Of a DNA stretch of 59,584 nucleotides, positions 109 through 59,584 are shown one piece after another. The stretch lies in IMG/VR virus record IMGVR_UViG_3300027754_000102, positions 1 to 59,584 of that record. The stretch is one strand, 5' to 3'. Each line of letters opens with the position of its first letter. Positions within the stretch are counted from its first letter, which is position 1. The notes under the pieces were generated by a model that saw nothing but the letters and a program-made list of their open reading frames with translations, was not told the origin of the DNA and ran no database searches. The translations under genes were made by a program, and so were the position numbers. The DNA is from a virus (Duplodnaviria > Caudoviricetes).

Positions 109-519
109 ATGCCGACAAAGAAGATGCCGATGGTGGTTGATGGAATCCCTAGCCAGCCACCCGAGGATTTAAATCCCGAAGAAAAAAAATCCTACACCGT
201 CCTGCATTCGCAGGTTACCAAATCCGGCCATGTCGGCAACACATCGCTGGAATCCTTCCTTCTCCTGGTACACCAGCGCGCCAGGCTAAAGCGGATCAGG
301 CGTGAGGTCGATGCACTGGAAAGCTGGATGATTTCAGGCAGCACCGGACAAGGCGCTCTCCATCCGATGGTTAAGGAATTGCGCCAAATGGAAACCGCCT
401 ACGCCAATCAGCTTGGCAAGTTGCTGATGGATCCACGCAGCAAGGTGACCTCGCGAGCCAAAGAGGATCAGGTCATGGCGGTGGCAGGTGACAACCCAAT
501 CATGAGATCGTTGGGATGA
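109..519 (+). CDS. terS: Terminase small subunit, P27-like (module A)
   Basis: Overlaps terL start (ATGA). PPEDL near N-terminus and 'HPMV...LLMDPRSK' resemble the P27 family 'NP....LGLTP.SR'. Confidence 0.85.
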   Translation: MPTKKMPMVVDGIPSQPPEDLNPEEKKSYTVLHSQVTKSGHVGNTSLESFLLLVHQRARLKRIRREVDALESWMISGSTGQGALHPMVKELRQMETAYANQLGKLLMDPRSKVTSRAKEDQVMAVAGDNPIMRSLG

Positions 520-2090
520 CCATGGCGAAAGCGCCAAAACGGCGTGCGAGCAAACCCAAGAAGAATCTTCCCAGTGAGAAGTTCAGGAGTTTTTGCGCTC
601 AATATTTGACGCATGTCCATGGACCGCAGCGAGGCCAACCATTCCTGCTTGAAGAGTGGCAGATGGAGCGGATCATTCGTCCCCTATACGACACGATCCG
701 CAAGGATGGTTTGCGCCAATACCGCACCAGCTATGTCGAGATTGGCCGAAAGAACGGCAAAAGTTTTCTGGCCATGGCAGTGGCGCTTTACGGTTTAATC
801 TGCGATGGCGAGCCGGGTGCGCAGGTGATCAGCGCGGCAGGCACACGGGAACAAGCTAGCTTGGTGTTTGACGTTGCGCGCGCTGCGATTCTGGCCAACC
901 CAATCCTGCGGCGCATGTGCCGAGTCTACAAAAAAGTGATCGAGACGCAGGACGGATCGACATACAAGGTGGTTAGTGCTGATGGATTTAATGCGCATGG
1001 CCTGTCCATCTCAACGCTAATATTTGATGAGCTATGGGTTCAAAAAAAGTCTGACCTATACGAAGCGCTAACCACATCGATGGGAGCTAGACGACAACCG
1101 CTGTCGTTCCTAATTTCAACATCTGGCTTTGATAAAAACACCATTTGTTATCAGACGCACAGCTACGCCGAGCGGATCCGTGATGGCATCGTTGAGGATC
1201 CAACCTTTTTGCCTGTGCTGTTCGGCGCACCAGAGGAAGCCGATTGGAAAGACCGATCCACCTGGCTGAGCGCTAACCCGAATCTAGGTATCTCAGTCTC
1301 GGAAGAATTCCTGTCGAATGCCTGCCGTGAGGCGCAGGAAAACCCAGCCAAGGAAATTAGCTTCCGGCAGTTCTTTCTCAGCCAGTGGGTGAGCGCTGAG
1401 TCCAGATGGTTTAGCCTAGACAAGATCGATGCCGCCATGGTCGAGGAATCCGATTGGCCGGACCTGACCGGCAAAGATTGTTTCCTAGGCTTGGACCTAA
1501 GCAGCACAACCGACTTAACGAGCATTGCCGCAGTCTGGCCGATAGATGGAATCTTTTATCTCGACTCCTGGTCATGGGCGCCGCGTGGCGCTTTGACCAC
1601 CCGAGAGAGAGCCAACCGCACACGGTTTCAGCCATGGGAAAAATCCGGGCATGTGATCGTGACTGATGGCGAGGTTATCGATTACACGCAGATTCACCGG
1701 CACATCGAAGATATGGCGACTCGATACAACATCCGCGAAATAGCGGTGGACAAGTGGAACAGTGTTGCGCTCTCAAATCAGTTGCAATCCGAAGGTCACA
1801 CGGTGGTGGCATTCCCGCAGGGCTTCGCCTCGATGTCACCAGCATCAAAAGATTTCGAGGCACTGGTTAGTTCTGGCAAAGTCCGCATCCGCAAAAATCC
1901 GCTGTTCCGCTGGGCATTCACCAATGTTTCCATGGTTCAGGATCCTGCTGGCAATGTCAGGCCGGACAAATCTAGAAGCGGTGACAAGATTGACCCGATC
2001 ATTGCCACCGTGATGAGCATGGCCAGAGCGCGGCACCATGAGGCATCGAGCCGGTCGGGCTATGAATCCGGCGGGCTAATGGTTCTCTGA
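516..2090 (+). CDS. terL: Terminase large subunit, HK97/Terminase_1 type (module A)
   Basis: 'LEEWQ', Walker A 'IGRKNGKS', Walker B 'LIFDELW', nuclease 'LGLDLSSTTDLTS', C-terminal 'KIDPIIA'. Confidence 0.97.
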   Translation: MTMAKAPKRRASKPKKNLPSEKFRSFCAQYLTHVHGPQRGQPFLLEEWQMERIIRPLYDTIRKDGLRQYRTSYVEIGRKNGKSFLAMAVALYGLICDGEPGAQVISAAGTREQASLVFDVARAAILANPILRRMCRVYKKVIETQDGSTYKVVSADGFNAHGLSISTLIFDELWVQKKSDLYEALTTSMGARRQPLSFLISTSGFDKNTICYQTHSYAERIRDGIVEDPTFLPVLFGAPEEADWKDRSTWLSANPNLGISVSEEFLSNACREAQENPAKEISFRQFFLSQWVSAESRWFSLDKIDAAMVEESDWPDLTGKDCFLGLDLSSTTDLTSIAAVWPIDGIFYLDSWSWAPRGALTTRERANRTRFQPWEKSGHVIVTDGEVIDYTQIHRHIEDMATRYNIREIAVDKWNSVALSNQLQSEGHTVVAFPQGFASMSPASKDFEALVSSGKVRIRKNPLFRWAFTNVSMVQDPAGNVRPDKSRSGDKIDPIIATVMSMARARHHEASSRSGYESGGLMVL

Positions 2091-2111
2091 GTTCGTCTGG
2101 TTTCCCAGAAT
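2086..2111 (+). promoter_or_regulatory. Module A late-promoter-like motif, copy 1 (before portal)
   Basis: TCTGAGTTCGT-ct-GGTT-tcc-CAGAAT; same layout at 4122 and 13375. Confidence 0.7.
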
Positions 2112-2119
2112 CGAGGAAT

Positions 2120-3376
2120 ATGGCAGACAGCATTCTAAAGCGAATTGGCAAAAGTATTTCCAGCCTGTTGGGTGCTGGTCAGCGTGGCCGTCCGCTAGTG
2201 CTGAACGATTACAACGCAATTGAACAAACTTGGAATGGCCGACCGGGTGCAATGGACTACCTCGGCATTCCAGCGGTGCTGGCCGGCCTGCGGTTGATTT
2301 CAGAAACCGTGGGTGGTCTACCTTTGCACTTGTATCACCGCCAGGTCGATGGCGGCAGAAACCGAGCCGAAGACCGCAACGAAGCCGATGTCTGGAAATA
2401 CAACGAAAACCGCAACGAAATGGAAATCAGGTCTAGCCTGATATTCCAAATGTTGGTCCATGGTGTCGCCTACGCTCGCATCTCTCGGATTGATGGTGGC
2501 GCAAGAAATCTTCAAGAGATCTCTGCCGATCACATCATCGAAAAGACCGACGACATTTTGGGAAAGAAGTTGTACGGAATTAAATCCGATCCCTATGCCA
2601 ACGATGCGGATACTTGGGTTTCTGAGGCGGACATGTTCGTCTTGCGTGGAACCTTCAACGGCAACAGCCTGCTGGATCTTTGCCGCAATTCACTGGAACT
2701 GACCAAGGCAACCCAAGATTTTGGCGGAACTCTTTACGCCAACGGCGCAAGGCCATCTGGTGTGCTAACGCATCCAGGCAAACTGTCCGACGATGCGCGC
2801 CGTCGCCTGCGTAGCGATTTTGAAAAACTGCACACTGGCTTGGCCAATGCTGGCCGCATTGCTGTGCTGGAAGAAGGTCTAACCTTCACGCCAACCAGCA
2901 CATCACCGGAAGATGCGCAAACGATTCAGACCCGAGAATTTCAGGTGCGTGAAGTCTGCCGCATATTCGGTATCCCACCGGCCAAAATGGGTTTGGGTGG
3001 CGGTGGCGAGAGCATCGAGGCGCAGAACATTCAGTTCTTAACCGACTGTATTCAGCCACATTTGATTCGGGTTGAACAGGAAGCCAACCGCAAGCTAGTT
3101 CGGGAGCATGAATGGGGCTGGTACACCTGGGAACACAGCGTTGAAGGTTTGCTGCGCGCAGACATCCTCACCCGTTACAAATCCTACTCCATCGGTCGCA
3201 ACTGGGGCTGGTTGTCGGTCAATCAGATTCGCAAGCTGGAATCATGGGATCCAATCCCAGGCGGCGATACTTACCTTAGTCCAACGAACATGCAACCGCT
3301 AACCGACACCGCTCCTGGTGCGCGTGCGCCTGCTGGCGATCAACCAGTTGATGCAATGGATCCACTCAATGGCTGA
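2120..3376 (+). CDS. HK97-family portal protein
   Basis: 'ISETVGGLPLHLY', 'YANGARPSGVL', 'NAGRIAVLEEGL', 'VCRIFGIPP', 'WLSVNQIR'; follows terL. Confidence 0.97.
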   Translation: MADSILKRIGKSISSLLGAGQRGRPLVLNDYNAIEQTWNGRPGAMDYLGIPAVLAGLRLISETVGGLPLHLYHRQVDGGRNRAEDRNEADVWKYNENRNEMEIRSSLIFQMLVHGVAYARISRIDGGARNLQEISADHIIEKTDDILGKKLYGIKSDPYANDADTWVSEADMFVLRGTFNGNSLLDLCRNSLELTKATQDFGGTLYANGARPSGVLTHPGKLSDDARRRLRSDFEKLHTGLANAGRIAVLEEGLTFTPTSTSPEDAQTIQTREFQVREVCRIFGIPPAKMGLGGGGESIEAQNIQFLTDCIQPHLIRVEQEANRKLVREHEWGWYTWEHSVEGLLRADILTRYKSYSIGRNWGWLSVNQIRKLESWDPIPGGDTYLSPTNMQPLTDTAPGARAPAGDQPVDAMDPLNG

Positions 3377-3572
3377 ATCCTCGTGGGATGGGATCTTGCT
3401 GGTTCTGGGTGAGGCGCGAACACCGCGCCGGTTGCCACCGGGCCCACCACAACTGCCACCGATTCGCATGTCGTTTGAAGACATGATTTCCGACGATACG
3501 GAAAACACCGAGACTGGACGCATCCGCAGGTTCAGCGAGAGGGGAGATTTCCGATGCCAACCGCCGGAATAG
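3369..3572 (+). CDS. Small hypothetical protein between portal and protease
   Basis: Fills the gap and overlaps both neighbours; no recognisable motif. Confidence 0.4.
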   Translation: MAESSWDGILLVLGEARTPRRLPPGPPQLPPIRMSFEDMISDDTENTETGRIRRFSERGDFRCQPPE

Positions 3573-4126
3573 AGATCGAGCGCCGCGTCGGCAGCCTTGC
3601 CGAGGTGGAGAGTGAAGGCAACAAGCTGCACGGATACGCCGCAGTGTTTAACCAGCCTAGTGAAAACCTTGGCGGGTTCCGTGAGTACATTGCGCCAGGC
3701 GCATTCAAGCGCACGCTTGATTCCAACGAGGATGTGCGTGCGCTGCTCGATCACGACACACGGTTGGTGCTAGGCAGACGATCCGCTGGCACGCTGCGAC
3801 TGCACGAAGACACCCGGGGCTTGGCGGTTGAAATTGACCTACCATCGACGAGTTATGCCAAAGATGCCGCAGAACTAATCAGGCGCGGCGATGTGTCGCA
3901 AATGTCTTTTGGATTCACCATCTCGAAAGGTGATGACGAGTGGTTGCCGCCTGAAGGCGATGAACCATTGCGCCGCAGGATTGTTCGGCACGCCAACCTG
4001 ATGGAAGTTTCCGTAGTGTCCATTCCGGCCTATCCGCAGACGGAAGTTGGTCTGCGTTCATTGTCCCGCTTTTTGTTGAGTCGGAACACAAACATCTTGC
4101 AGGTGCTTGGGTTGCGCAGGTTCTGA
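3554..4126 (+). CDS. HK97-family prohead protease
   Basis: 'GYAAVFN', 'FREYIAPGAF', 'LLDHD', 'MSFGF', 'EVSVVSIPAYPQT'. Confidence 0.97.
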   Translation: MPTAGIEIERRVGSLAEVESEGNKLHGYAAVFNQPSENLGGFREYIAPGAFKRTLDSNEDVRALLDHDTRLVLGRRSAGTLRLHEDTRGLAVEIDLPSTSYAKDAAELIRRGDVSQMSFGFTISKGDDEWLPPEGDEPLRRRIVRHANLMEVSVVSIPAYPQTEVGLRSLSRFLLSRNTNILQVLGLRRF

Positions 4127-4147
4127 GTTCGTGAGGTTCTATAGTTT
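4122..4147 (+). promoter_or_regulatory. Module A late-promoter-like motif, copy 2 (before major capsid)
   Basis: TCTGAGTTCGT-ga-GGTT-cta-TAGTTT. Confidence 0.7.
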
Positions 4148-4182
4148 TGATTTCATGTGATTCACACACAGGAGAATAGCAG

Positions 4183-5547
4183 ATGAATAAGATCGTGATT
4201 TCAAAAGCCACTCGCGAAGAACTGCTTGAAGCACGTTCCGCATTGATGGCGCAACTAACCGGAATGCAAGAGCGGCAACTAACACCCGAAGAGCAAGCCG
4301 CATTTGATGCGCTGGTCGCACAGGTGAACGAGATCGATGCAAAGGTCACAACTTTGGAGGCTGAACTTATGGCTGATCCCGCCGCTGATCCCGGTGACGC
4401 TGCTGTTCAGCAAGCATCCGCTCGGTCTATCCCAGCATTGAACGAACTTCCCAAGCCACCCGCTGCTAGCGAGCCGGTGTATGTGAACACTCCGGTGCCG
4501 AACATTGTTCGTGACCTGAATGATCGCCGCGCCATTCGCAACCGCGACATGGCTTTGCGCGGTTGGGCACTTCAGCCAACCGGTCTTTGCACCGCTGACC
4601 ATGTCCGCGCTGCCAATGAGATCGGTTTCAACCTAAACAACAAGGTGCTGAACCTGCGACTGTACGAGAATCCCAATAAGGAAACTCGCGCCCAGTCTGC
4701 TGGTACTGGCAGTGCTGGTGGCTACCTTGTTCCCACCGATCTGATTCGTTCGCTGGAAACGGCACTGGCCTACACCTGCCCGATCCGCCAATTCGCACAA
4801 GTGCTTCGCACCGCGAGCGGAAACCCAATCGATATTCCAACCGTGGACGACACTTCAAACAGTGGCGAACTGGTTGCTGAAAACGCATCCTACGCCACGC
4901 AGGATGTGACATTCAGTAAGGTCACACTCAATGCCTATAAGTTCACATCTAAGCTGGTTTTGGCCAGCTTGGAACTGCTGCAAGATTCCGCCATCAATGT
5001 TGGCGAAATTCTTGGTAACCTCCTGGGTGAGCGCATCGGTAGAAGCCAGCTCGGATTTTTCACCACCGGAACCGGCTCCAGCCAACCGCAAGGTGCGGTG
5101 ACTGGTAGCGCTGCTGGTGTGACTTCCGCCAGTGCGTCAGCCATCGCTGTTGACGATCTGCTTGGGTTGGTTCACTCTGTTGATCGCGCCTATCGTGACG
5201 CTGGCGCTTTCATGATGCACGACAGCATTTTGCTTGCTGTGCGCAAATTGAAGGACAGCACCAATCAGCCGATCTTCACTCAGTCCTACATCGTGGGTGA
5301 ACCTGACCGTCTGTTTGGGTATCCGGTTGTCATAAACAACAGCATGGCATCCACCGTTGCCACCACCAACAAAACTGTGCTGTTCGGCGACTGGTCCAAG
5401 TTCATCATTCGCGATGCGCTGGATATCCAGTTGGTGCGCAGTGACGAGCGTTACATGGAATACGGACAAAGCGCATTTGTTGCGCTGGCTCGATCTGATT
5501 CCAAGGTCAGCATGTCTGGTGCCTTGAAGCGCCTCACCCAAGCCTAA
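4183..5547 (+). CDS. HK97-family major capsid protein with N-terminal delta domain
   Basis: Coiled-coil N-terminus, 'GGYLVP', 'SLELLQDS', 'GTGSSQPQG', 'LFGYPV', 'FGDWS'; AGGAG RBS. Confidence 0.97.
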   Translation: MNKIVISKATREELLEARSALMAQLTGMQERQLTPEEQAAFDALVAQVNEIDAKVTTLEAELMADPAADPGDAAVQQASARSIPALNELPKPPAASEPVYVNTPVPNIVRDLNDRRAIRNRDMALRGWALQPTGLCTADHVRAANEIGFNLNNKVLNLRLYENPNKETRAQSAGTGSAGGYLVPTDLIRSLETALAYTCPIRQFAQVLRTASGNPIDIPTVDDTSNSGELVAENASYATQDVTFSKVTLNAYKFTSKLVLASLELLQDSAINVGEILGNLLGERIGRSQLGFFTTGTGSSQPQGAVTGSAAGVTSASASAIAVDDLLGLVHSVDRAYRDAGAFMMHDSILLAVRKLKDSTNQPIFTQSYIVGEPDRLFGYPVVINNSMASTVATTNKTVLFGDWSKFIIRDALDIQLVRSDERYMEYGQSAFVALARSDSKVSMSGALKRLTQA

Positions 5548-5576
5548 TCCCGCTAATAGGGACCGGGCTTAATCTG

Positions 5577-5613
5577 ACCGGTCCGGCGGGATTCCGCTGG
5601 ACCGGTTTTATTT
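5577..5613 (+). terminator. Rho-independent terminator after capsid gene
   Basis: 13-bp stem ACCGGTCCGGCGG/CCGCTGGACCGGT (one G-U), GATT loop, T-rich tail. Confidence 0.85.
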
Positions 5614-5816: not shown

Positions 5817-5823
5817 GGTGAGT

Positions 5824-16107: not shown

Positions 16108-17916
16108 ATGGCGCTCATTAGAGCTGACCGCGTCAAGGAATCATCTACTAGCACCGGCACGGGGGTATTTACCCTGGCCGGTGCTGATTCCACTTACCGG
16201 ACATTCGCGTCTGTTTGTGCGGTGGCTGACACGGTTTACTATGTGATTGCTCACAGGACTAGCAATGAGTGGGAGGTTGGGCTCGGCACCTATAGCGCCA
16301 CCAACACGCTGACCAGGACAACAGTTCACGCAAGCAGTAACGCCAACGCGGCTGTGGCATTCAGCACCGGCACTAAAGACGTACTGCTGGCGCTGACGAA
16401 AGCACAGCTAGAAACGTACGCCACTCTAGCTGGCACCGAGACGCTGACGAACAAGACTATCAGCGGCGCAAACAACACCATCACCAATGTTTCACTAACT
16501 ACTGGCGTGACCGGCACTCTGCCACTAGCCAACGGTGGTACTGGTGCAACTACGCAGACAACAGCAGCTACTAGCCTGATCGGTAACCCTCCAAATGATG
16601 GATTGCAGTACACGCTGGCATCCAAGAAAACTAGCGGTACGCCATCGTTCTACTGGGTCGATTCGACTGGTTACGCTCCGACATTGGATTTGTTGTTTGC
16701 TGCGGATAAGACTCTCACGCCTTACTCTGGACCTACGCCAAGTTTTAGCAGGGCATCGACTGGCACATTAACTAATTCATCCGGCGTACTAACCACAGCA
16801 GCAGTAAACGCACCACGCTTCGACCATGTATACAACGGAACAAGCTGGGTGAGTAAAGGGCTGTTGGTCGAGGAGCAGAGGACGAATAGCGTTTTCTATT
16901 CTGAGCAGTTTAACTTGTGGGCAAAATCAAGATGCAATGTCACAGCTAATTCAATTACAGCTCCTGACGGAAACACCACAGCCGACTTATTGACGACATC
17001 TATTGCAGATGCCGTCAACGAAGCATATGTATATTCAAACAATGCACCATCTGGCCAGACTACTGTGTCTTGCAGCATTTTTGTTAAAAAAGGTAATTGC
17101 GATTATTTAAGGCTACAGATTTATGATTCAGCATTTTCGAATGGTGTTATTTCAAAAGTCAACATCAGCACCGGAGCAATAATTTCGACAAGCTCAATAG
17201 GCACAGGTTGGTCTGTGACTTCAGCAGATATTTCCAACTATGGATCTGGATGGTATCGAGTTACGCTAAACGCCAGCAAGCCATCTGGAAGCACGACAAG
17301 TATTTTATTTAGCTATTCATCGCTGGTGGCAGTAAATGCGGTTTTAGGCGATACTGTTTACCTATGGGGAGCCCAGATTGAAACCGGATCATCATTCCCT
17401 ACAAGCTACATTCCAACCACCACAGCAGCGGTGACAAGGTCAGCAGATGTTTGTCAGATTACTGGGACGGATTTTAGTGGGTTTTGGTATGCGAGTGAGG
17501 GAAGTTTAGTGGTTCAATATGATCGCCTTAATGTTCCCACTTCAAACGGTGTTCTTTTTGCAGCCTCGAAAGTTTCATCACCCTTACAGAACCTAATTTA
17601 CAATTTTGCAAGTAGTGGGAATGAAAACCTTTCAGTTTACAACGCCAACATTGATCAAGCCACATTTGCTATAGGATCTATTCCTTCAGCTGGCACATCT
17701 GCAAAAATTGGATTCTGTTACAAGGTTAACGATTTCGCTGGAACACTAAATGGTTCTGCTGTGGTCACGGATACTTCAGGTTCTGTTACGGCTGTAGAGC
17801 AAATTGGTATCGGTTACATTCACGGCACTACAGCAAATTACAACGGCCACATCTCCCGACTGAGCTACTACCCAGTCCGCATCCCAAACGCCACCCTACA
17901 GGTACTATCAACATGA
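16108..17916 (+). CDS. Tail fibre / receptor-binding protein (copy 1)
   Basis: 'ADRVKESSTSTGTG' anchor, 'TETLTNKTI', 'GTLPLANGGTGATT', 'GLLVEEQRTN', 'PTSYIPTT.AAVTRSAD', LamG-like C-terminus. Confidence 0.85.
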   Translation: MALIRADRVKESSTSTGTGVFTLAGADSTYRTFASVCAVADTVYYVIAHRTSNEWEVGLGTYSATNTLTRTTVHASSNANAAVAFSTGTKDVLLALTKAQLETYATLAGTETLTNKTISGANNTITNVSLTTGVTGTLPLANGGTGATTQTTAATSLIGNPPNDGLQYTLASKKTSGTPSFYWVDSTGYAPTLDLLFAADKTLTPYSGPTPSFSRASTGTLTNSSGVLTTAAVNAPRFDHVYNGTSWVSKGLLVEEQRTNSVFYSEQFNLWAKSRCNVTANSITAPDGNTTADLLTTSIADAVNEAYVYSNNAPSGQTTVSCSIFVKKGNCDYLRLQIYDSAFSNGVISKVNISTGAIISTSSIGTGWSVTSADISNYGSGWYRVTLNASKPSGSTTSILFSYSSLVAVNAVLGDTVYLWGAQIETGSSFPTSYIPTTTAAVTRSADVCQITGTDFSGFWYASEGSLVVQYDRLNVPTSNGVLFAASKVSSPLQNLIYNFASSGNENLSVYNANIDQATFAIGSIPSAGTSAKIGFCYKVNDFAGTLNGSAVVTDTSGSVTAVEQIGIGYIHGTTANYNGHISRLSYYPVRIPNATLQVLST

Positions 17917-18079
17917 TCGACCTACTTCTAAAGTTCCAATCGCAAGAGCAGGCTGGTCTAATCGGAGAGCAACTTGGCTACACTACCCGTGATCCTGAAA
18001 CGGGTGAGTTTCAAACAACGCAAGCCACATTGACGCTAGCAATCTGCGTAATAGGTGTGCATTACTATCCAGACGGAAC
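16108..18079 (+). repeat. Long direct repeat, copy 1 (copy 2 = 57613-59584; offset 41,505 bp)
   Basis: Both fibres are 602 aa. Last mismatch seen at 17139/58644; then apparently identical to the window end. Confidence 0.95.
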
Positions 18080-19678: not shown

Positions 19679-20021
19679 CTGGCTGCGTGAGCTCTGGTTC
19701 GGCTTGACCACCGGCATCTGGCACGCCTGGGGACAGACCCGCCGGTCTTCCGCTTGGGGCCCGCTTCGGGACCGGTTCGTTGCCGAGAACCCGTTTTGCG
19801 CCGGGTGCAGCAAGCAGGCCATGCTAGAGGTTCACCACATCACGCCGTTTCACGTGCGACCCGACCTTGAATGCGACGAGTTTAACCTGGTCGTGCTCTG
19901 CCGCGACTGTCACTACACCTTTGGCCACCTGCGGGACTGGCGCCTGAGCAACACCCACGTGATTGAGGACGCCGCGGCCTACCGCCGACGGTACACTGAA
20001 GCCCGGGCCGACAAGCCTTAG
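19671..20021 (+). CDS. HNH endonuclease (small, Zn-binding)
   Basis: 'CAGC', 'LEVHHITP', 'NLVVLCRDCH'. Confidence 0.88.
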   Translation: MPDWLRELWFGLTTGIWHAWGQTRRSSAWGPLRDRFVAENPFCAGCSKQAMLEVHHITPFHVRPDLECDEFNLVVLCRDCHYTFGHLRDWRLSNTHVIEDAAAYRRRYTEARADKP

Positions 20022-21205
20022 CCAAAACGCTCAACGACCTCGTTAACCACCCGCCGGTGGATCTGCGCATACCGCCCTGTGATCGACCCGGAGCCCGTGC
20101 CCAGCGTGGATCCCCCGCCGTGGCCCAGGATCGCCCCGACGATACCCTCGTCAATCCCATGCGACCTCAGCCAGGTGGCCGCGCTGTGGCGTATCTGCCG
20201 CGGGTTGTATCGGGGCATGACTGGCAGCGGATTTTTCTTGGTCACCTTGCGGCCCAGCCGGGCCCATTTTTCCGCCAGCACGGCGTCGGCCCGCTTCATC
20301 GCAAACTCAAACGCCCGCCGATAGCCTGACGTGGTTACGGGGCCAAAATAGGGCACGCCGCGGATCTGGTGCTTGCCAGGAAATAACCAGCCTTTGGGGC
20401 GCCGCTTCAGAATCGCAGCCAATGCCTGCCGGGCCAGCGGCCCAACCAGCACCGCCAGCGCCTGCCCCCGCCAAGAGCCTTTATGCTGAACTGGCACGTA
20501 CCGCCAGGGCCGCATGGACTGGTCGATGTCCTCGGCCCTGACCGACAAAGCCGTCTCGACCCGTTGCCCTGTGTACAGGTGCCACAGGAAAACCGCCCGC
20601 CAAGATTTTTTCAGGTACCGCCAAATACGAAACAGGTGCAGCGGCGGGATCGCCTCGATGACCTTGGATTTTTTAGCTTGAGTCGGTCGCAACCGCTCCC
20701 ACTTTTTCAGCGTGGCGAGCTGCCCGGCCTGCACCCAGCCCCGGGCCTCCGCCCAGGTAAACGACCGGACGATGCGGCCCAAGTACTCGTGGATAGTTTT
20801 GCGGGCTTTGCCTTCGAGCACCAGTTGGTCCCTGACGGCGATCAGGTGCTCACGCCCAAACGCAACCAGGTGCAGGTCTTGGAACGGCAGGAACAGTTTC
20901 ACCGCCTGGTGGCAGACGCCGACCTCGCCTGTCGGTTTTCCGTCGGCCCGTCGGTACCGTTCATGGCATTGGTCAAGCCACAGGGCCCAGAGGGCCGAGC
21001 AGACCAGCGGGCGCGACGGCGATTCCAGCCTGCCCGGCTCCGCCTTCTCTCGCAAATAATCAGCCAGCCACTGTCGGTAATTGGCCTCCGCCGCCGGCGT
21101 TCCGGCGTGGCCCATCATCTTCTGCTTACCGGTCCGCGGGTCCTTCACGTAGGCCCAGCCGGTCCGTTTATGCCGCAGCAATTTCGGTATGCGCAGCTTT
21201 GCCAA
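20018..21205 (-). CDS. int: Tyrosine recombinase / integrase
   Basis: 'YTGQR', 'RQIRHSAAT', 'ILGH', 'ITGRYA'; adjacent to tRNA-derived att core. Confidence 0.92.
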   Translation of the reverse strand: MAKLRIPKLLRHKRTGWAYVKDPRTGKQKMMGHAGTPAAEANYRQWLADYLREKAEPGRLESPSRPLVCSALWALWLDQCHERYRRADGKPTGEVGVCHQAVKLFLPFQDLHLVAFGREHLIAVRDQLVLEGKARKTIHEYLGRIVRSFTWAEARGWVQAGQLATLKKWERLRPTQAKKSKVIEAIPPLHLFRIWRYLKKSWRAVFLWHLYTGQRVETALSVRAEDIDQSMRPWRYVPVQHKGSWRGQALAVLVGPLARQALAAILKRRPKGWLFPGKHQIRGVPYFGPVTTSGYRRAFEFAMKRADAVLAEKWARLGRKVTKKNPLPVMPRYNPRQIRHSAATWLRSHGIDEGIVGAILGHGGGSTLGTGSGSITGRYAQIHRRVVNEVVERFG

Positions 21206-21278
21206 AGTTGTAACCCCCGCTAATAGTTGTAAGGAATTGCGGGCTGGTTTTCTGACGTTTTCCCTTGTTTTCCAGCAG

Positions 21279-21323
21279 TCGGGGCAACAGGATTCGAACC
21301 TGCGGCCTCTTGGTCCCGAACCA
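21279..21323 (-). other. attP core: 3' half of tRNA-Pro(CGG)
   Basis: Minus strand TGG-TTCGGGA-CCAAG-AGGCC-GCAGG-TTCGAAT-CCTGT-TGCCCCGA: anticodon loop, T arm and acceptor 3' strand; no 5' half. Confidence 0.88.
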
Positions 21324-27022: not shown

Positions 27023-27937
27023 ATGAAGCTCAACACCATCCAGCACCCGAAAATCCTACGCCTCCGCCGGCGCTTATCCGTGCCCACTTGGGGCGCCGTC
27101 GGCGTGCTGGAAAGCCTCTGGCACCTGACCGCAACCCACGCCAAGGACGGCGCCATCGGTCGCATTTTCACCAACGAGGACATCGCCAACAGCATCGGCT
27201 GGGAGGGCGACCCAGACCACCTAATCGACGCCCTCGTGGCCTCCGGCTGGCTGGATGTTTGCGCTAGCAATCGTCTAATCGTGCATGACTGGAGCGATCA
27301 TTGCCCCGATTTTGTGCGGGGAAATTTAGCCCGTCAGAAGGTAGATTTTGCGGTTGCAACCACAAACAGCGCACCAGTAACACCAGTACCCTACTCCAGT
27401 ACCGTACTCCAGTACGCTACTCCAGTACCCTACTCAAGTACCGTACATGAGTCGCCTACTCCAAGACCAAGACCTAAACCAATACCAATACCAAGCCAAG
27501 ACCCAGAAGATAAAGTCAGTGTCGAGTTGCCCGAAGCGGTCAACCCGCCCCCCGACGCCGTCGCCGAGTTTCCTTGCCAAGGTCTTCGGCAGGTCTGGCA
27601 CCTGACCACGGGCCAAGTCGCCGACTGGCAGGCCAGCTACCCGGGGCTGGACATTGACGCCGAGTGCCGGAAGGCCTTGGCGTGGGTGAAGGCCAACCCA
27701 CGGAAGAAGCGCACCCACGGCGGCATGCCGAAGTTTTTGGTCAACTGGTTCAACCGCGCCACCGACCGACCGGGCCCTGCCCCGCCCCGGTCCTTCTACC
27801 AACCCCGCAGCGCCACCCCGTCGCCGACGGTGACCGAGCGCATGGGCGCCGACGTGGTCGGTATGCTGTTTGGCCAGCACCAGGCAGCGACCCAACCGAT
27901 GACCCCGACGCTGGAGCTGGAGGTGCGACATGGGTGA
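27023..27937 (+). CDS. Replication initiator (lambda O-like organisation)
   Basis: N-terminal 'HPKI..L...L...AVG.LE.LW', 'IVHDW.DH'; central iteron linker; C-terminal 'FLVNWFNR'. Confidence 0.8.
   Translation: MKLNTIQHPKILRLRRRLSVPTWGAVGVLESLWHLTATHAKDGAIGRIFTNEDIANSIGWEGDPDHLIDALVASGWLDVCASNRLIVHDWSDHCPDFVRGNLARQKVDFAVATTNSAPVTPVPYSSTVLQYATPVPYSSTVHESPTPRPRPKPIPIPSQDPEDKVSVELPEAVNPPPDAVAEFPCQGLRQVWHLTTGQVADWQASYPGLDIDAECRKALAWVKANPRKKRTHGGMPKFLVNWFNRATDRPGPAPPRSFYQPRSATPSPTVTERMGADVVGMLFGQHQAATQPMTPTLELEVRHG
27383..27447 (+). repeat. Five tandem 13-bp iterons (putative origin)
   Basis: CCAGTACCCTACT/CCAGTACCGTACT/CCAGTACGCTACT/CCAGTACCCTACT/CAAGTACCGTACA, then an A/C-skewed tract. Confidence 0.85.
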
Positions 27938-36269: not shown

Positions 36270-36710
36270 ATGCCAACGCCAGCCAAACTAACCCCCGAGC
36301 TAATCAAGCGTATGGGCGACCTATTTCGCCTGGGTATGTCACAAGTACAAACGGCCAAATTTTTCGGCGTCGCCCCGCAGACCCTGCGCAAGTGGCTAAC
36401 CATTGGCCGACGCCAGAAAAAGGGCCTGCACGCTGAACTGGTGGCTACCCTGTGGCACGGTGAAGCCGCCGCGGTTCGGGACTGCCTGGTGAACCTGCAC
36501 CGGGCCCATGTCGACGGTAACAAATGGCAGGCCGCAGCCTGGTACCTCGAACGCAAGCACCCCGAAGAATGGGCCGACCGTGGCCCAGGCATCAAGGAGA
36601 TTGACCGACTCTATGCGAAAATGGTCCGAAATTCCGCCGGAGCGGATGCTGAGGGAGTTGAACCGACGGCGGGCCCGGCTGATCCGGGAGAAAAAGCGGG
36701 CCCCCGCTGA
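36270..36710 (+). CDS. terS: Terminase small subunit, HTH type (module B)
   Basis: 'KLTPEL', HTH 'TAKFFGVAPQTLRKW', 'WQAAAWYLERKHPEEW'; overlaps terL. Confidence 0.8.
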   Translation: MPTPAKLTPELIKRMGDLFRLGMSQVQTAKFFGVAPQTLRKWLTIGRRQKKGLHAELVATLWHGEAAAVRDCLVNLHRAHVDGNKWQAAAWYLERKHPEEWADRGPGIKEIDRLYAKMVRNSAGADAEGVEPTAGPADPGEKAGPR

Positions 36711-38121
36711 CCCGGTTCAATACGCCCAGTCCCTCGGCCTGTACGTCACCCCGCAGCAGCAGGCCATCCTGCGAGCGCTGATTGAGCCACCCTACTGCGT
36801 CATGGTCCGAGCCGCCCACTCGGTCGGCAAAACATGGACGGCCGCCCTAGTGGCGAGCTGGTTCCATGACCGTTACAACCCCGGACTGTGCCTGACCACG
36901 GCGCCCACGCTGGTATCCGTGCGCGACCTGCTGTTCCGGGAGCTGCGCAAGCTCCGCCCGCGCGATCCCAATTGGCTGCCGAAGGACACCCGCCTGCAAT
37001 CGTCCAACGACCACTGGATACACGGCTTCACCGCCAATAAGCCCGACGCATTCCAAGGCCGGCACGCTGACAAAATGATGGTCATCTTCGATGAGGCCTC
37101 CGGCGTCGACGTGCAATTCTGGGAACGGGCCATGACAATGATCAACCCCGGCCGCCCGGGGCACTATTTCTTCGCCATCTACAACCCGTACGACGTGAGC
37201 TGCCCCGCCTATGCCTACGAGCAGTCGGGCCGGTTCACGGTGCTGGAAATGTCAGCTCTAGACCATCCCAACGTGCTGCATGGCGACGAAGTCGTGCCCG
37301 GGGCGATCACCCGGCCTGTGGTAGCCGAACGCATCCGCGACGAGTGCCGGGTGCTGGAGCCCGAGGAACAACGACCCAGCAACGCATTTGAGTTTGCCGA
37401 CACCGTCTGGGTGCCCGAGTCGCCGCTGTTCGAGGTGCAGGTCTTGGGCCGCTGGCCGTCGAGGTCGACCAGTTCCGTATGGTCCGACCTAGCCCTGACC
37501 CGCGTGCAGGAGACCGTCGAAGTCGATCCCAAGTGGCTAACCCAAATCGGCTGCGACCCTGCCCGGTTCGGTGATGACCGCACCGCCATCTGCGTCCGCA
37601 AGGGCCGGGCCATCGTTCACCTGGAGAGTCACCGCGGCTGGCCGCTACAGCAGACGGCAACCCGACTGAAGGAGCTGGCTCAAGAATGGCACGCACCAGG
37701 GCAGAAGGCGACCGAGGTCCCCGTGCTGATCGACGCCGCCGGACTGGGTGCCGGACTGGTGGAGATGGCTGGCACCGGGCCGTTCCGGCATCTATTCGTC
37801 GAAATAAACAGCGCCTTGCGGTCGAGGTGGGAGACCGAATGGCCGAACCTGCGCAGCGAGTTGTGGTTCAGCAGCGCCGCCTTGGCGGAGGATGGCCAGA
37901 TCACCATGGCCCCACTGCCCGACGACCTACGCCAGCAATTGATGGCCGAGCTGCGGCAGCCCGTGTTTACGCTCGACGCCATCCAGCGCCGCGTCGTTGA
38001 GGCCAAGCAATCGACCAAACGCCGCCTCCGGGCCTCGCCTGACCTGGCCGATGCCTTTAACTTGGCGTGCATGCTACGTGGCGCCGGCGGCTGGGTGGAG
38101 CGCGTGGACGGTCGAATCTGA
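36613..38121 (+). CDS. terL: Terminase large subunit (module B), different family from module A
   Basis: Walker A 'VRAAHSVGKT', 'FQGRH', Walker B 'VIFDEASGV', 'GCDPARFGDD', 'SPDLADA'. Start approximate. Confidence 0.93.
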   Translation: MRKWSEIPPERMLRELNRRRARLIREKKRAPADPVQYAQSLGLYVTPQQQAILRALIEPPYCVMVRAAHSVGKTWTAALVASWFHDRYNPGLCLTTAPTLVSVRDLLFRELRKLRPRDPNWLPKDTRLQSSNDHWIHGFTANKPDAFQGRHADKMMVIFDEASGVDVQFWERAMTMINPGRPGHYFFAIYNPYDVSCPAYAYEQSGRFTVLEMSALDHPNVLHGDEVVPGAITRPVVAERIRDECRVLEPEEQRPSNAFEFADTVWVPESPLFEVQVLGRWPSRSTSSVWSDLALTRVQETVEVDPKWLTQIGCDPARFGDDRTAICVRKGRAIVHLESHRGWPLQQTATRLKELAQEWHAPGQKATEVPVLIDAAGLGAGLVEMAGTGPFRHLFVEINSALRSRWETEWPNLRSELWFSSAALAEDGQITMAPLPDDLRQQLMAELRQPVFTLDAIQRRVVEAKQSTKRRLRASPDLADAFNLACMLRGAGGWVERVDGRI

Positions 38122-42568: not shown

Positions 42569-43759
42569 GTGAACATGTCAGCGATCTACCGCAAGCTGCG
42601 CGAAAGCGCCAAGACGAACGGGGTGGCGACCACCTCCAGGGCCCTGATCGAAGAAGTGAACGGCGGCGCCGTCAACCCGGCCCGACTGTCGATTCGCCGG
42701 CTAGCCGAGGCCTTCATGGGCGAAGGCTGGGCCGAGCATCTTGACAGGTACAACCGCACAGGCCAAGTGCTTGAAAGCACCGAGGCTGTCGACCCATCGG
42801 CCTTCGCCGCAATTACCGGCCAGCTGCTGGTGAACGAGGTCCGCGAGAAGTACAAGCTGGCCTCCATGGTCGCCGATTCCCTCTGCACCACCATTGCCGT
42901 GACAAACGGCAACCTTGGGCCACAACGGGTGCCCTACCTGTCCGACGTGACCAACGACTCGGACATCGTCGAACCAGGCATGCCCTACTCGCAGACCCGG
43001 TTTTCTGGTCAGTACATTGACCACCCAGCCGTGGTCAAAAAGGGCAAAATCGTCGCGGTGACCGCCGAGGCGATCTACTCTGACCTGACCAGCCAGATCA
43101 TCGACTCGGCCCGCTCCGTCGGTACCCGCGTCGCTCTGGGCCGCGAGGAGGACATCCTCAAGGTCGTGTTGGGTATCAACAACCCACACAGCTGGAACGG
43201 CACCAGCTACAGTACCTACCTGTCTAGCGGCTCAAACTGGATCAACACCGTGACCGGTTTTAGCCTGACGGACTGGACAGGGCTAAACACCCTGGAGCAA
43301 TTGTTTGTCAAGATGCGGGACCCGGTCACCGGGAAACCCATCCAGATTGAGCCCAAACAGGTCTTCGTGATGCCCGCGCAGAAATACAACCTGCGCAGAA
43401 TCATCAACGCCACTGAGATCCAGAGCGGCAACTACGCCACTACTGGCAACCCATCTCGTACGACCGGCGCCAACCCGCTGGATCAAAACTACGAGATCCT
43501 AACCAGCGCCCACGGGTTCAACCTGCTGACCGACGCCGCCATCGGCAACGTCAGCGAGGCCAACGCCAACGCCCGGGTTTACCTTGGCGACTTTAAGCGT
43601 GCGTTTGTCTGGCGTGAGGCCAAGCCGTTGAGCGTGATCGAGGCGCCACCGCAGAACGCCGCGGAGTTTAACAACGACATCGTGCTGAGTGTGAAGGCGT
43701 CCCTGTGGGGCGTCGCCGGCGTGGCCGAGCCCCGCGCTGTCGCCCTCGGCAAGGAGTAA
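42569..43759 (+). CDS. Major capsid protein (module B; Mu gpT-like HK97 fold)
   Basis: 'KKGKIVAVTAEAIYSDLTSQI', 'YLGDFKRAF'; size and position; GAGGAG RBS. Confidence 0.88.
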   Translation: MNMSAIYRKLRESAKTNGVATTSRALIEEVNGGAVNPARLSIRRLAEAFMGEGWAEHLDRYNRTGQVLESTEAVDPSAFAAITGQLLVNEVREKYKLASMVADSLCTTIAVTNGNLGPQRVPYLSDVTNDSDIVEPGMPYSQTRFSGQYIDHPAVVKKGKIVAVTAEAIYSDLTSQIIDSARSVGTRVALGREEDILKVVLGINNPHSWNGTSYSTYLSSGSNWINTVTGFSLTDWTGLNTLEQLFVKMRDPVTGKPIQIEPKQVFVMPAQKYNLRRIINATEIQSGNYATTGNPSRTTGANPLDQNYEILTSAHGFNLLTDAAIGNVSEANANARVYLGDFKRAFVWREAKPLSVIEAPPQNAAEFNNDIVLSVKASLWGVAGVAEPRAVALGKE

Positions 43760-54979: not shown

Positions 54980-55684
54980 ATGCTAACCCTGCTGCTGCTC
55001 GTCCTGTCCCAAGACATCAAGCTCCCCGCCGAGGTCACCGCTCAGCCTGGCACCTTTGTGTCCCTGGTCGCCGAGACCAAGGGCGAAACCGTCAAATTCA
55101 CCGCCATCGACCCGGGCGTCTCCCTGTTCCCTGCTGAACTGCTCGCCAATAAAAAATCCACCGTGGCCGTCGCCATGTCCGCGGGCCGCTACCGGGTGCT
55201 TGTCTGGTCAGCGATTGACGGCAAGCCCACCGACGCCGTGCAGGTCACTCTGGTGGTCGGCAATGCCCCGGGACCGGTTCCACCATCACCACCGGCGCCA
55301 CCACCTCCGGCACCACCACCAGTACCACCCACGCCACCCGCCCCGGTCGATGACCTGGCGCAGATCCTCGCCGCCCTTTACGGCGCCTTGAACGAGGACG
55401 GCAAGGCCGCCCACGTCAAGGCATTGGCTGGTGTTTTTCGTGAGGCCGGCGTGGCCTCTAACGACAACCGATACCAGACGGTTGGCCAACTGTTCGGGGC
55501 CATTCGCCAGCAGTCCTTGCAGGCCCTGCCCAACACCGCCCTAACGTCCATGCGCGAGCGCCTTGGGCTGGTTCTAACCCAAGCTCTTGGCAACGACCCC
55601 GCGGCCCCGCTGACGCCCAGCAGCCGGGCCAAGGCCTTTGAGACGTTCAGCCGGATTGCCAGCATCCTGGAGGCCCTGCGATGA
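54980..55684 (+). CDS. Exported protein with Pro-rich linker
   Basis: Homologue of 13407-14078 ('DIK.P.EV', 'G.YR', 'ALG.DPAA.L'). Confidence 0.6.
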   Translation: MLTLLLLVLSQDIKLPAEVTAQPGTFVSLVAETKGETVKFTAIDPGVSLFPAELLANKKSTVAVAMSAGRYRVLVWSAIDGKPTDAVQVTLVVGNAPGPVPPSPPAPPPPAPPPVPPTPPAPVDDLAQILAALYGALNEDGKAAHVKALAGVFREAGVASNDNRYQTVGQLFGAIRQQSLQALPNTALTSMRERLGLVLTQALGNDPAAPLTPSSRAKAFETFSRIASILEALR

Positions 55685-57183: not shown

Positions 57184-57603
57184 ATGGCTTCTCTTGTTTA
57201 CAATTCGTGCATCCGCGACGCTGTCGTCGGCAATATTGATTTTGACACCGACACCTTCAAGGCCATGCTGGTCACGTCGACCTACTCGGCCAGCAAAAGC
57301 CACGCAAAACGCTCGCCTGACATCACTAACGAGGTGACTGGCACCGGCTACACAGCGGGCGGTAATGCTTGCTCGGTATCCGTGGCCGCCGTCGACAACA
57401 CCAACAACGATGTTGAAATCTCGTTCACAATCACATCGTGGACCAGCGCCACGATCACCGCCCGGGCCGCCGTCATCTACAAGTCCACCGGGACTGCTTC
57501 GGCTGATCCGCTCGTTGGCTACGTCGATTTTGGTTCGGACGTATCAAGTACCAACGGCACGTTTGCGGTGACTGTGAGCAGCCCATTGAAATTCCAAAAC
57601 TAG
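57184..57603 (+). CDS. Virion fibre-module protein (MASLVYNS family), single copy in B
   Basis: Close homologue of 15679-16098. Confidence 0.7.
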   Translation: MASLVYNSCIRDAVVGNIDFDTDTFKAMLVTSTYSASKSHAKRSPDITNEVTGTGYTAGGNACSVSVAAVDNTNNDVEISFTITSWTSATITARAAVIYKSTGTASADPLVGYVDFGSDVSSTNGTFAVTVSSPLKFQN

Positions 57604-57612
57604 GAATAACCC

Positions 57613-59421
57613 ATGGCGCTCATTCGAGCCGACCGCGTGAAGGAATCCAGCACCAGCACCGGCACGGGGGCATTCACCCTAGCCGGTGCTGATTCTACCT
57701 ACCGGACCTTTGCGTCAGTGTGTGCTGTGGCCGACACGGTTTACTATGCGATCGCGCACAGGACTGCAAATGAATGGGAAGTTGGACTTGGCACCTATAG
57801 CGCCACCAACACGCTGACCAGGACAACGGTTCACGCAAGCAGCAACGCCAACGCGGCTGTGGCATTCAGCACCGGCACTAAAGACGTGCTGCTGGCGCTC
57901 ACGAAAACCCAACTGGAAACATATGCAAGCCTGACTGGCACCGAAACCCTGACCAATAAAACCATCAACGCCAGCAACAACACTATCACCAACGTCTCGC
58001 TAACCTCTGGAGTGACAGGCACCCTGCCACTTGCCAACGGTGGTACTGGTGCAACTACCGCAGTTACTGGAGCGGTTAATCTAATCAAATCTGCGCCTAA
58101 TGATGGTGCTGAGTACACGCTAAAGAGCAAGCAAATTAGCGGTGCGCCATCGTTCTACTGGGTCGATTCGACTGGTTACGCTCCGACATTGGATTTGTTG
58201 TTTGCTGCTGATAAATCACTTACGGCGTATACTGGGCCGACTCCTTCATATAGTCGAGCAAGCACGGGTACTTATCTTAATGCGTCTGGCATACTAACAA
58301 CAGCAGCAGTAAACGCACCACGCTTCGACCATGTATACAGCGCAACAAGCTGGGCGAGTAAAGGGCTGTTGGTCGAGGAGCAGAGGACGAATAGCGTTTT
58401 CTATTCAGAGCAGTTTAACTTGTGGGCAAAATCAAGATGCAATGTCACAGCTAATTCAATTACAGCTCCTGACGGAAACACCACAGCCGACTTATTGACA
58501 ACATCTATTTCAGATGCCGTCAATGAAGCATATGTATATTCAAACAATGCACCATCTGGCCAGACTACTGTGTCTTGCAGCATTTTTGTTAAAAAAGGTA
58601 ATTGCGATTATTTAAGGCTACAGATTTATGATTCAGCATTTTCAAATGGTGTTATTTCAAAAGTCAACATCAGCACCGGAGCAATAATTTCGACAAGCTC
58701 AATAGGCACAGGTTGGTCTGTGACTTCAGCAGATATTTCCAACTATGGATCTGGATGGTATCGAGTTACGCTAAACGCCAGCAAGCCATCTGGAAGCACG
58801 ACAAGTATTTTATTTAGCTATTCATCGCTGGTGGCAGTAAATGCGGTTTTAGGCGATACTGTTTACCTATGGGGAGCCCAGATTGAAACCGGATCATCAT
58901 TCCCTACAAGCTACATTCCAACCACCACAGCAGCGGTGACAAGGTCAGCAGATGTTTGTCAGATTACTGGGACGGATTTTAGTGGGTTTTGGTATGCGAG
59001 TGAGGGAAGTTTAGTGGTTCAATATGATCGCCTTAATGTTCCCACTTCAAACGGTGTTCTTTTTGCAGCCTCGAAAGTTTCATCACCCTTACAGAACCTA
59101 ATTTACAATTTTGCAAGTAGTGGGAATGAAAACCTTTCAGTTTACAACGCCAACATTGATCAAGCCACATTTGCTATAGGATCTATTCCTTCAGCTGGCA
59201 CATCTGCAAAAATTGGATTCTGTTACAAGGTTAACGATTTCGCTGGAACACTAAATGGTTCTGCTGTGGTCACGGATACTTCAGGTTCTGTTACGGCTGT
59301 AGAGCAAATTGGTATCGGTTACATTCACGGCACTACAGCAAATTACAACGGCCACATCTCCCGACTGAGCTACTACCCAGTCCGCATCCCAAACGCCACC
59401 CTACAGGTACTATCAACATGA
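57613..59421 (+). CDS. Tail fibre / receptor-binding protein (copy 2)
   Basis: 602 aa; near-identical to 16108-17916. Confidence 0.85.
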   Translation: MALIRADRVKESSTSTGTGAFTLAGADSTYRTFASVCAVADTVYYAIAHRTANEWEVGLGTYSATNTLTRTTVHASSNANAAVAFSTGTKDVLLALTKTQLETYASLTGTETLTNKTINASNNTITNVSLTSGVTGTLPLANGGTGATTAVTGAVNLIKSAPNDGAEYTLKSKQISGAPSFYWVDSTGYAPTLDLLFAADKSLTAYTGPTPSYSRASTGTYLNASGILTTAAVNAPRFDHVYSATSWASKGLLVEEQRTNSVFYSEQFNLWAKSRCNVTANSITAPDGNTTADLLTTSISDAVNEAYVYSNNAPSGQTTVSCSIFVKKGNCDYLRLQIYDSAFSNGVISKVNISTGAIISTSSIGTGWSVTSADISNYGSGWYRVTLNASKPSGSTTSILFSYSSLVAVNAVLGDTVYLWGAQIETGSSFPTSYIPTTTAAVTRSADVCQITGTDFSGFWYASEGSLVVQYDRLNVPTSNGVLFAASKVSSPLQNLIYNFASSGNENLSVYNANIDQATFAIGSIPSAGTSAKIGFCYKVNDFAGTLNGSAVVTDTSGSVTAVEQIGIGYIHGTTANYNGHISRLSYYPVRIPNATLQVLST

Positions 59422-59584
59422 TCGACCTACTTCTAAAGTTCCAATCGCAAGAGCAGGCTGGTCTAATCGGAGAGCAACTTGGCTACACTACCCGTGATCC
59501 TGAAACGGGTGAGTTTCAAACAACGCAAGCCACATTGACGCTAGCAATCTGCGTAATAGGTGTGCATTACTATCCAGACGGAAC
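59418..59584 (+). CDS. Tail fibre assembly protein, truncated by window edge
   Basis: Identical to 17913-18079. Confidence 0.7.
   Translation, partial: MIDLLLKFQSQEQAGLIGEQLGYTTRDPETGEFQTTQATLTLAICVIGVHYYPDG

Follow-up and report, generated by a model that had tools for sequence, protein, structure and literature searches.

Viral metagenome assemblies are described, in the portion of Roux et al. 2017 available to us (PMC5610896), as giving rise to chimeric contigs from highly similar regions of co-existing viruses, and in the simulations reported there such chimeras usually made up <5% of contigs of ≥10 kb. Exchange of fibre or host-recognition modules between distantly related phages is reported for Alteromonas phages in the accessible part of PMC10579305, and the shuffling of protein fragments in phages in that of PMC10684548. 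The window examined here is an entire IMG/VR record of 59,584 bases, classed as linear and rated 100% complete, in which an earlier note had read two full, unrelated head-tail modules and considered an assembly chimera, a real cointegrate and a dual-virion or helper/satellite pair. The data presented below make it very probable that the record is a chimeric contig, in which the structural half of one phage (A) is followed by a complete and unrelated phage (B), the two being joined via a shared stretch of the fibre gene.

The direct repeat claimed to lie 41,505 bp apart was found at exactly that offset, 15679-18079 pairing with 57184-59584 (∼2.4 kb), with 89% identity between the copies over 2,413 aligned columns. 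The copies are much closer toward their ends (99.4% identity over 16795-18079), with just 8 single-base differences within 16795-17139 followed by a 940-bp core, 17140-18079, that matches 58645-59584 in register without a single difference, as expected from the claim of an identical stretch of ∼940 bp. The record terminates within copy 2 of the repeat, again as claimed (18,079 + 41,505 = 59,584). The shared fibre segment has a GC content of 0.47, lower than that of both the A and the B backbones. The relevant features are the following.

16108..17916, + strand, fibre gene copy 1, A allele up to 17139, the remainder being the same as copy 2
57613..59421, + strand, fibre gene copy 2, B allele (phrog_5939, E 6e-73), 92% DNA identity to copy 1
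17140..18079, + strand, identical stretch, first copy, within the Logan shared unitig 16795-18153
58645..59584, + strand, identical stretch, second copy, where the record ends

The two modules had been described as sharing one tail fibre, a wording that must be given up, as the fibre genes are two alleles with 92% DNA identity and not a single gene. The differences between the two 602-aa proteins are confined to approximately the first 250 residues, and from about residue 300 the proteins are identical. The 940-bp identical stretch exceeds the span of short reads, and there is a break in composition between the A and B parts. The mis-join lies somewhere inside 17140-18079.

Upstream of this stretch, the window carries the genes of phage A.

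1..17139, + strand, phage A fragment, apparently the left arm of a ∼35-kb cos-type genome (GC 0.51-0.55), with head, tail and its own fibre 5' allele
516..2090, + strand, A terminase large subunit (phrog_9, E 1e-153; PF03354 and PF20441, TerL_ATPase and TerL_nuclease)
4183..5547, + strand, A major capsid protein, HK97 type (phrog_10, E 3e-70; PF05065, E 1e-57)

An HK97-type head is indicated by the ordered presence of an HK97-family capsid protein, prohead protease (phrog_80), portal (phrog_12 and PF04860) and terminase large subunit, and the adaptor, head closure and tail chaperone genes were also matched in PHROG or Pfam. The proposal of a full module therefore stands for these components but not for the terminase small subunit and tape measure, since the putative small subunit (109-519) matched no PHROG family and the supposed tape measure (9759-11876) likewise had 0 family matches. 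Comparison with related contigs bears on the ends of this genome. The window and the A-type contig G002 begin at the same base, G002 and a further contig, G001, finish at the same base, and a third contig, G003, reads across this end point, the two ends being separated there by 8 additional nt. From these common ends and the read-through, position 1 of the window appears to be the physical end of the A genome, with a complete A unit of ∼34.9 kb, and the 8-nt gap between contig ends, filled by the one read-through contig, would correspond to the cos overhang.

The remainder of the window is accounted for by phage B.

18080..59584, + strand, phage B, one full turn of 41,505 bp, a complete temperate genome (GC 0.59-0.64), permuted so that it starts and ends in the fibre gene
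20018..21205, - strand, B integrase (phrog_1, E 1e-24)
21277..21323, no strand assigned, tRNA-like fragment adjoining the integrase, a candidate attP core
27023..27937, + strand, B replication initiation protein (phrog_9474, E 5e-20)
36508..38121, + strand, B terminase large subunit (phrog_2, E 2e-24), 97% identical to the protein of contig G004
38181..39812, + strand, B portal, lambda family (PF05136, E 1.6e-28; phrog_21)
42569..43759, + strand, B major capsid protein (PF25209, Phage_capsid_4, E 2e-10)

The lambda-like portal proposed for this module is borne out by a score of 100.4 bits against Phage_portal_2 (PF05136), for which the curated cut-off is 32.9, and the terminase large subunit is indeed of another family than that of A (phrog_2 versus phrog_9). 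The small subunit (phrog_4102) and a tape-measure-like protein (49958-51388) were also matched, and for the protease there was only a weak match (E 1.7e-4). The capsid protein had been called Mu gpT-like, which found no backing, as PF25209 was the only Pfam family at E ≤ 0.01 and PHROGs gave only a weak match to phrog_133. The window holds a single integration and replication set, as stated, with one integrase and one replication initiator. No complete tRNA genes were found with ARAGORN. The tRNA-like fragment is the only place matched by contigs unrelated to the phage from run X4, one of them at a depth of 210.

We compared six contigs with the entire window (G001-G006), including those of 3 of 18 terL-A loci and 2 of 2 terL-B loci, and each carried one phage type only: three were A only (G002, G003 and G006), two B only (G004 and G005), and G001 consisted of an A-type right arm only. 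G004 is an IMG/VR contig of 41,533 bp with direct terminal repeats, rated 100% complete, whose 87-bp terminal repeat we confirmed. Collinearity extends over 19197-57605, with 81-96% identity for most of the length (72% over 50222-52573), and its sole matches to the first 18 kb are two stretches of ∼72% identity to phrog_644 genes. G005 is likewise collinear with B, and in both contigs the gene order runs from tail to fibre and then into the region found at 18-19 kb of the window (in G005, the homologue of 18251 onward). On the A side, G002, which is 33,805 bp long and 96% complete, follows 1-15684 collinearly at 76-79% identity and continues into genes common to G001, its only two matches to B covering 346 and 478 aligned columns at ∼70%. 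G003 is collinear with A at 91% identity and is without B. It also has a similarly doubled fibre, belongs to the same group as the window and may itself be affected.

Two head-tail gene sets with identical fibre tips on one record would be what is expected of a dual-virion element, or of a helper/satellite (GTA-like) pair that builds two particle types of shared receptor specificity. Each phage type is, however, found as a self-sufficient genome that has an integrase, a replication initiator and packaging genes of its own (the A type in G001, G002 and G003, the B type in G004), the compositions of A and B differ by ∼8 GC points, their depths are unlinked (see below), and 0 of 6 relatives carry both types. 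We regard such an element as extremely improbable, and nothing in the data speaks for a phage with two virion modules.

Depth was assessed from Logan contigs of two public short-read runs, X1 and X2, which contain 0.96-0.97 of the sampled window words; each contig has one mean depth rather than a per-base profile, and the record may have been assembled from X1 or X2, so that these runs are not independent of it. In X1, the A unitigs had depths of 8.0-10.1 (main unitig 9.08), the B unitig 18.2 and the shared unitig 26.6, and in X2 the corresponding values were 36.3-37.4 for A (33.8 for one short piece), 43.4 for B and 79.3 for the shared unitig. Thus, the depth of the shared node approximates the sum of A and B in both runs, and the A:B ratio is not the equal depth expected of a single molecule, being 0.50 in X1 and ∼0.85 in X2. 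Uncorrelated depth had been named beforehand as an observation that would speak against a real cointegrate or dual-virion element, and this is what we found. The shared unitig is a single node spanning 16795-18153 in both runs and has the copy-2 allele at 8/8 of the sites that differ between the repeat copies. Its end at 18153, as opposed to the branch in the window at 18079, implies that the branch point differs between these runs and the assembly from which the window came. Beyond the repeat, the X1 piece at 18350-18743 has a depth of 19.2, which equals that of B, so that the remaining 7-9x must take another exit. For X2, the two short pieces that follow the repeat have depths of 39.6 and 35.8, by which A and B cannot be told apart. 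These depths suggest that a second exit would be present in both X1 and X2.

Two further runs were set aside. X3 (share 0.53) was considered as a sample with B and without A, and was dropped because its cover of both sides is thin and patchy, with almost none over 16005-18005, and an uncovered part is no evidence. X4, a run with a small share, does not contain the phages, its matches being limited to a piece 95% alike to 6000-7695, a glycine-rich low-complexity spot at ∼11.2 kb and the tRNA-like fragment (21.3 kb).

B closes on itself in the assembly graph, in which a single Logan unitig of 39,071 bp covers 18749-57819. This closure also bears on the idea that A and B are two adjacent prophages in one host chromosome, assembled as a single stretch. 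Both phage types do encode integrases, but host genes are absent between and beside A and B, the two are joined within a fibre gene and not at an attachment site, the B integrase and tRNA-like fragment are flanked on both sides by phage genes, and the record starts at the A virion end. Adjacent prophages are accordingly a very unlikely explanation.

The other exit was sought by using the terminal 30 nt of the shared unitig as a query, which led to G001, a contig of 16,983 bp. The first 127 nt of G001 match 17953-18079 and 59458-59584 at 100% identity, and it departs from the path of the window at the base right after the last base of the window. What follows is A-like in GC (0.50-0.58) and in tetranucleotide composition, the correlation being 0.92 between G001 and A and 0.77-0.80 between G001 and B, compared with 0.71-0.72 between A and B and 0.94 between the two halves of B. 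The products encoded by G001 include an integrase (E 4e-35) as well as a replication initiator (E 2e-33). The contig shows collinearity to the non-structural half of G003 and terminates where A-type genomes terminate. Its last long open reading frame (230 aa, 16230-16922) had no PHROG match; read by eye, there is an HNH-like C terminus just upstream of the end site. A second exit from the repeat into the replication genes of A, the other observation named beforehand, is therefore at hand in G001, with an A-type integrase and replication initiator, albeit in a contig from another sample that is a relative of A and may belong to a different strain (G001 is 83-87% identical to G003). We infer that in the source sample the right arm of A itself would resemble G001. 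An A-specific 36-mer had 0 matches in metagenome contigs, a 40-mer taken at the end of the identical core retrieved nothing there but the source contig of G001, with no contig having both entry and exit, and a mid-core 40-mer had 0 matches in a set of viral contigs from which records at or near the window may be missing. A point against the chimera is that no read or contig was seen in which the fibre allele of A leads into a G001-type exit within a single run. With the fibre protein as query, viral contigs yielded one distant relative (49%), which carries no information on the join, and genome contigs a single weak match confined to the N terminus (51% over 100 residues), from a Planctomycetota MAG, on which no host assignment can be based.

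These data also allow us to weigh a real cointegrate, in which circular A and circular B would recombine by one homologous crossover within the fibre gene to give A-left, repeat, B, repeat and A-right, the contig breaking at the second repeat. Repeat-B-repeat is the exact layout of a single crossover, 940 bp of identity is ample substrate for recombination, and short-read graphs and depths cannot separate A plus B from a cointegrate plus extra free B if the depth of B is no lower than that of A. Against this, B has twice the depth of A in X1, meaning that at least half of B is free, all six related contigs have one type only, and no datum requires a cointegrate. Furthermore, with the fixed ends of A ∼34-35 kb apart, the cos-to-cos distance would be ∼76 kb, about twice the DNA that an A-type particle would package. 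A cointegrate is hence a very unlikely origin for the record. It is similarly improbable that a minority of molecules are true A-B cointegrates beside free B, formed by crossover in the 940-bp stretch, although if they were, two unrelated temperate phages would have been caught in the act of recombination within one host. Of the options raised earlier, an assembly chimera through the identical stretch had been ranked the most parsimonious, and it is this one that the depths, the A-only and B-only genomes and the second exit support, with no support for the cointegrate or the dual-virion and helper/satellite options.

For the chimeric contig, we propose that two unrelated temperate phages would co-occur in the same freshwater samples, A with an HK97-type head, cos ends, a genome of ∼35 kb and a GC content of ∼0.53, and B with a lambda-family portal, a genome of 41.5 kb and a GC content of ∼0.61, both bearing a near-identical 3' part of the fibre gene and the start of the next gene. 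We infer that the assembler would have started at the physical left end of A, run through head, tail and the 5' part of the fibre gene into the shared stretch, left it via B for a single lap of the circular B graph (41,505 bp) and halted upon re-entering the shared stretch.

The presence of a 940-bp identical fibre tip on backbones ∼8 GC points apart points to a very recent transfer of the receptor-binding part, namely the distal part of the fibre gene, between two unrelated, co-occurring phages, for which both would have to enter the same host. Events of this kind are already known, and the present example comes from uncultured freshwater phages. For database quality, the consequence is that a record listed as 100% complete consists of about half of one phage and all of another, and statistics on gene content, host or size taken from it would be wrong.

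Compared with known systems, module A resembles HK97-like cos phages in its HK97-fold capsid, prohead protease, PF04860 portal, terminase large subunit and fixed ends, with the difference that its cos overhang is suggested by an 8-nt gap between contigs only. As in the fibre-module exchanges described in the parts of PMC10579305 and PMC10684548 available to us, unrelated backbones carry the same distal fibre, together with the start of the next small gene, and a lineage-specific proximal part; unlike the cases described there, this one is known from uncultured freshwater contigs alone and its shared segment has a GC content of 0.47. Finally, the record is like the chimeric contigs in the available portion of PMC5610896 in that it links two distinct genomes through a common stretch exceeding the read length, and it differs from the chimeras described there in that one whole genome was traversed exactly once, so that the product mimics a cointegrate and was rated 100% complete.

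The IMG/VR record, which is the entire window (59,584 bases, classed by the database as linear and rated 100% complete), consists of the left arm of one phage, A, and one full turn of a second phage, B, joined within a 940-bp stretch common to both genomes; its length is the sum of 18,079 and 41,505. Positions 15679-18079 recur as a direct repeat at 57184-59584 (offset 41,505; 89% identity across 2,413 aligned columns), and the end of the record falls within this second copy. Identity climbs along the repeat, from ~70% at the small gene preceding the fibre gene, through 65-97% per 100 bases in the 5' third of the fibre gene, to 8 isolated differences in 16795-17139 and none in 17140-18079 (940 bp), and the two fibre proteins (602 residues each) do not differ anywhere beyond about residue 300. 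From a GC content of 0.51-0.55 in 1-16 kb the sequence dips to 0.47 in 16-18 kb; past 18 kb most of it lies at 0.59-0.64, apart from two 2-kb windows at 0.53-0.54. The genes are as follows.

Module A, 1-18 kb:
terL (phrog_9; PF03354 and PF20441)
portal (phrog_12; PF04860)
prohead protease (phrog_80)
HK97-type capsid (phrog_10; PF05065)
adaptor, head closure and two tail-chaperone-like genes
two phrog_644 genes, then the fibre gene

B, integration and replication genes from 18 kb and head-tail genes after them:
17913-18248, small gene with its start inside the repeat
18252-19385, protein with 66-nt repeats (phrog_11583)
HNH protein
20018-21205, minus strand, integrase
Gam-like, Sak4-like and SSB proteins
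replication initiator, sigma factor and RusA
TGT-like and PAPS-reductase-like proteins
terS (phrog_4102)
terL (phrog_2)
lambda-family portal (PF05136)
capsid (PF25209)
tape-measure-like protein
phrog_644 gene, then the fibre gene (phrog_5939)

The two head-tail modules listed in the earlier note are largely recovered, except that the supposed terS and tape measure of A had no family match in the PHROG search; the capsid of B, previously labelled Mu gpT-like, loses that label, its Pfam match being PF25209. An open reading frame of 982 residues between the capsid and tail genes of B (44015-46963) had no match in PHROG or Pfam. In a lower-GC stretch of B (30668-32591), the queuine tRNA-ribosyltransferase-like gene (phrog_887, E 3e-62) adjoins the PAPS-reductase-like gene (phrog_424, E 1e-47), and the two may form a DNA-modification pair.

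Three public short-read runs hold at least half of the sampled words of 12000-21999 (X1, 0.97; X2, 0.96; X3, 0.53), and these were compared with 6000-25999 together with a small-share run, X4, every depth being one mean per Logan contig and not a per-base read depth. The record itself may originate from X1 or X2. In X1, the A unitigs have depths of 8.0-10.1 (9.08 for the main 8,496-bp piece), the B unitig (39,071 bp, 18749-57819) 18.2 and the shared unitig (16795-18153) 26.6; the corresponding values in X2 are 36.3-37.4 (33.8 for one 317-bp piece), 43.4 and 79.3. The depth of the shared node is thus that of the A side plus that of the B side in both runs, and the A:B ratio is not constant (0.50 in X1 versus ~0.85 in X2). 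The shared unitig has the letter of the second repeat copy, the B allele, at each of the 8 differing sites, and together with the B unitig and short pieces it closes a circle of 41,505 bp. The piece directly after the repeat in X1 (18350-18743) has a depth of 19.2; the window therefore leaves the repeat by the exit of B, and ~7-9x must depart elsewhere; in X2, two short post-repeat pieces (39.6 and 35.8) do not discriminate A from B. The branch points differ, the Logan shared node ending at 18153 and the assembly of the window having branched at 18079.

Two local signals in these comparisons lie away from the junction. A depth spike in bin 10669-11335, with many loose ends, arises because a glycine-rich low-complexity stretch (11159-11210) draws many unrelated metagenome contigs; the same stretch and 55280-55321 form the two arms of an imperfect inverted repeat, I1. 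Beside the B integrase, 21277-21323 is matched by phage-unrelated X4 contigs, one of them at depth 210, that match the window nowhere else. No whole tRNA was found there with ARAGORN, and the spot fits a candidate attP core made of a tRNA fragment, which would therefore place B in the excised form.

The shared unitig matches, through its final 30 nt, one other contig, G001 (IMG/VR, 16,983 bp), a related phage from another sample. Its nt 1-127 are 100% identical to 17953-18079 and 59458-59584, and it leaves the path of the window one base later, exactly where the window stops; it remains ~90% alike for ~500 more bases (to 18578), across the small gene into the repeat protein, and is unrelated beyond. 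Its GC content is 0.50-0.58, and its tetranucleotide correlation is 0.92 with A and 0.77-0.80 with B (A with B, 0.71-0.72; one half of B with the other, 0.94). It encodes an integrase (E 4e-35), a replication initiator (E 2e-33), a sigma factor and an exonuclease, so the second exit towards A's own replication genes, given in the earlier note as grounds for refutation, is present in this relative. A protein of 22-residue (66-nt) repeats rich in Gly, Ala, Thr and Ser lies downstream of the fibre cassette both in B (18252-19385, 6 repeat copies in the window) and in G001 (298-1344), both matching phrog_11583, to which no function is assigned.

Searches with terL gave 18 loci for A, of which three with useful context were taken further (G002, G003 and G006), and 2 for B (G004 and G005). 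G002 (33,805 bp, 96% complete) begins on the first base of the window, is collinear with 1-15684 at 76-79%, shares genes with G001 past its own fibre region and ends on the last base of G001 (16983). Four contig ends from three assemblies coincide on the same two bases, and G003 (42,912 bp; 91% to 1-15673, 83-87% to G001) runs across them with 8 nt extra in between (17445-17452). From their coincidence, these look like fixed termini of the virion DNA in A-type phages, a putative cos site whose short cohesive overhang would be lost in library preparation. Window 1-18,079 plus G001 past nt 127 gives 34,935 bp, near the length of G002 and the ~33.1-kb spacing of the fibre copies in G003. In that A-type contig the fibre region is doubled (1-1721 and 33128-34779, 89-93%), and the 8.1 kb that follow the second copy (34780-42912) consist of replication genes (primase/helicase, clamp, two sigma factors, RusA, SSB and Sak4-like) adjoining a 426-residue fibre fragment, with no tail genes there; G003 may be another fibre-mediated mis-join. 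G006 (12,182 bp) is likewise A-type. On the other side, G004 (41,533 bp) has 87-bp direct terminal repeats, giving a circle of 41,446 bp, and is collinear with 19197-57605 (81-96% over most, 72% over 50222-52573); G005 (34,938 bp) is arranged alike, at 70-84%. Both run from the B tail genes through the fibre gene to homologues of 18.3-19.2 kb onward.

All six contigs compared over the whole window carry A or B content alone, cross-matches being confined to the phrog_644 and fibre-proximal genes and to a few non-structural stretches (one in G003 and G006, two in G002; ~350-480 aligned columns at 67-71%). A dual-virion element, a helper/satellite pair of the GTA-like kind and two prophages lying side by side all fail, since the A and B depths are unlinked, each type has relatives that are self-sufficient genomes, the record is without host DNA and the join lies inside a gene. 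A true A-B cointegrate would leave a short-read graph like that of a chimera, given that B is at least as deep as A; no observation calls for one, however, and its cos-to-cos unit would be ~76 kb, twice the A-type packaged DNA; even as a minority form a cointegrate is very improbable. The depths, the second exit and the single-type relatives instead make an assembly chimera through the identical stretch very likely, and PMC5610896 describes, as an assembly error, chimeric contigs that arise where co-existing viruses have highly similar regions.

What A and B do share runs from the receptor-binding end of the fibre gene 167 bases into its downstream neighbour (to 18079). Against genomes, the only match of the fibre protein was weak and N-terminal, in a Planctomycetota MAG. 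Because these 940 bp are without difference and the GC content of the segment is below that of both backbones, the comparison points to a recent exchange of fibre ends, probably in a common host, between two temperate phages that are unrelated to each other and share the same water. Exchange of host-recognition modules among distant phages is well known (PMC10579305, PMC10684548), and the sharing between A and B is a new example of it and not a new kind.
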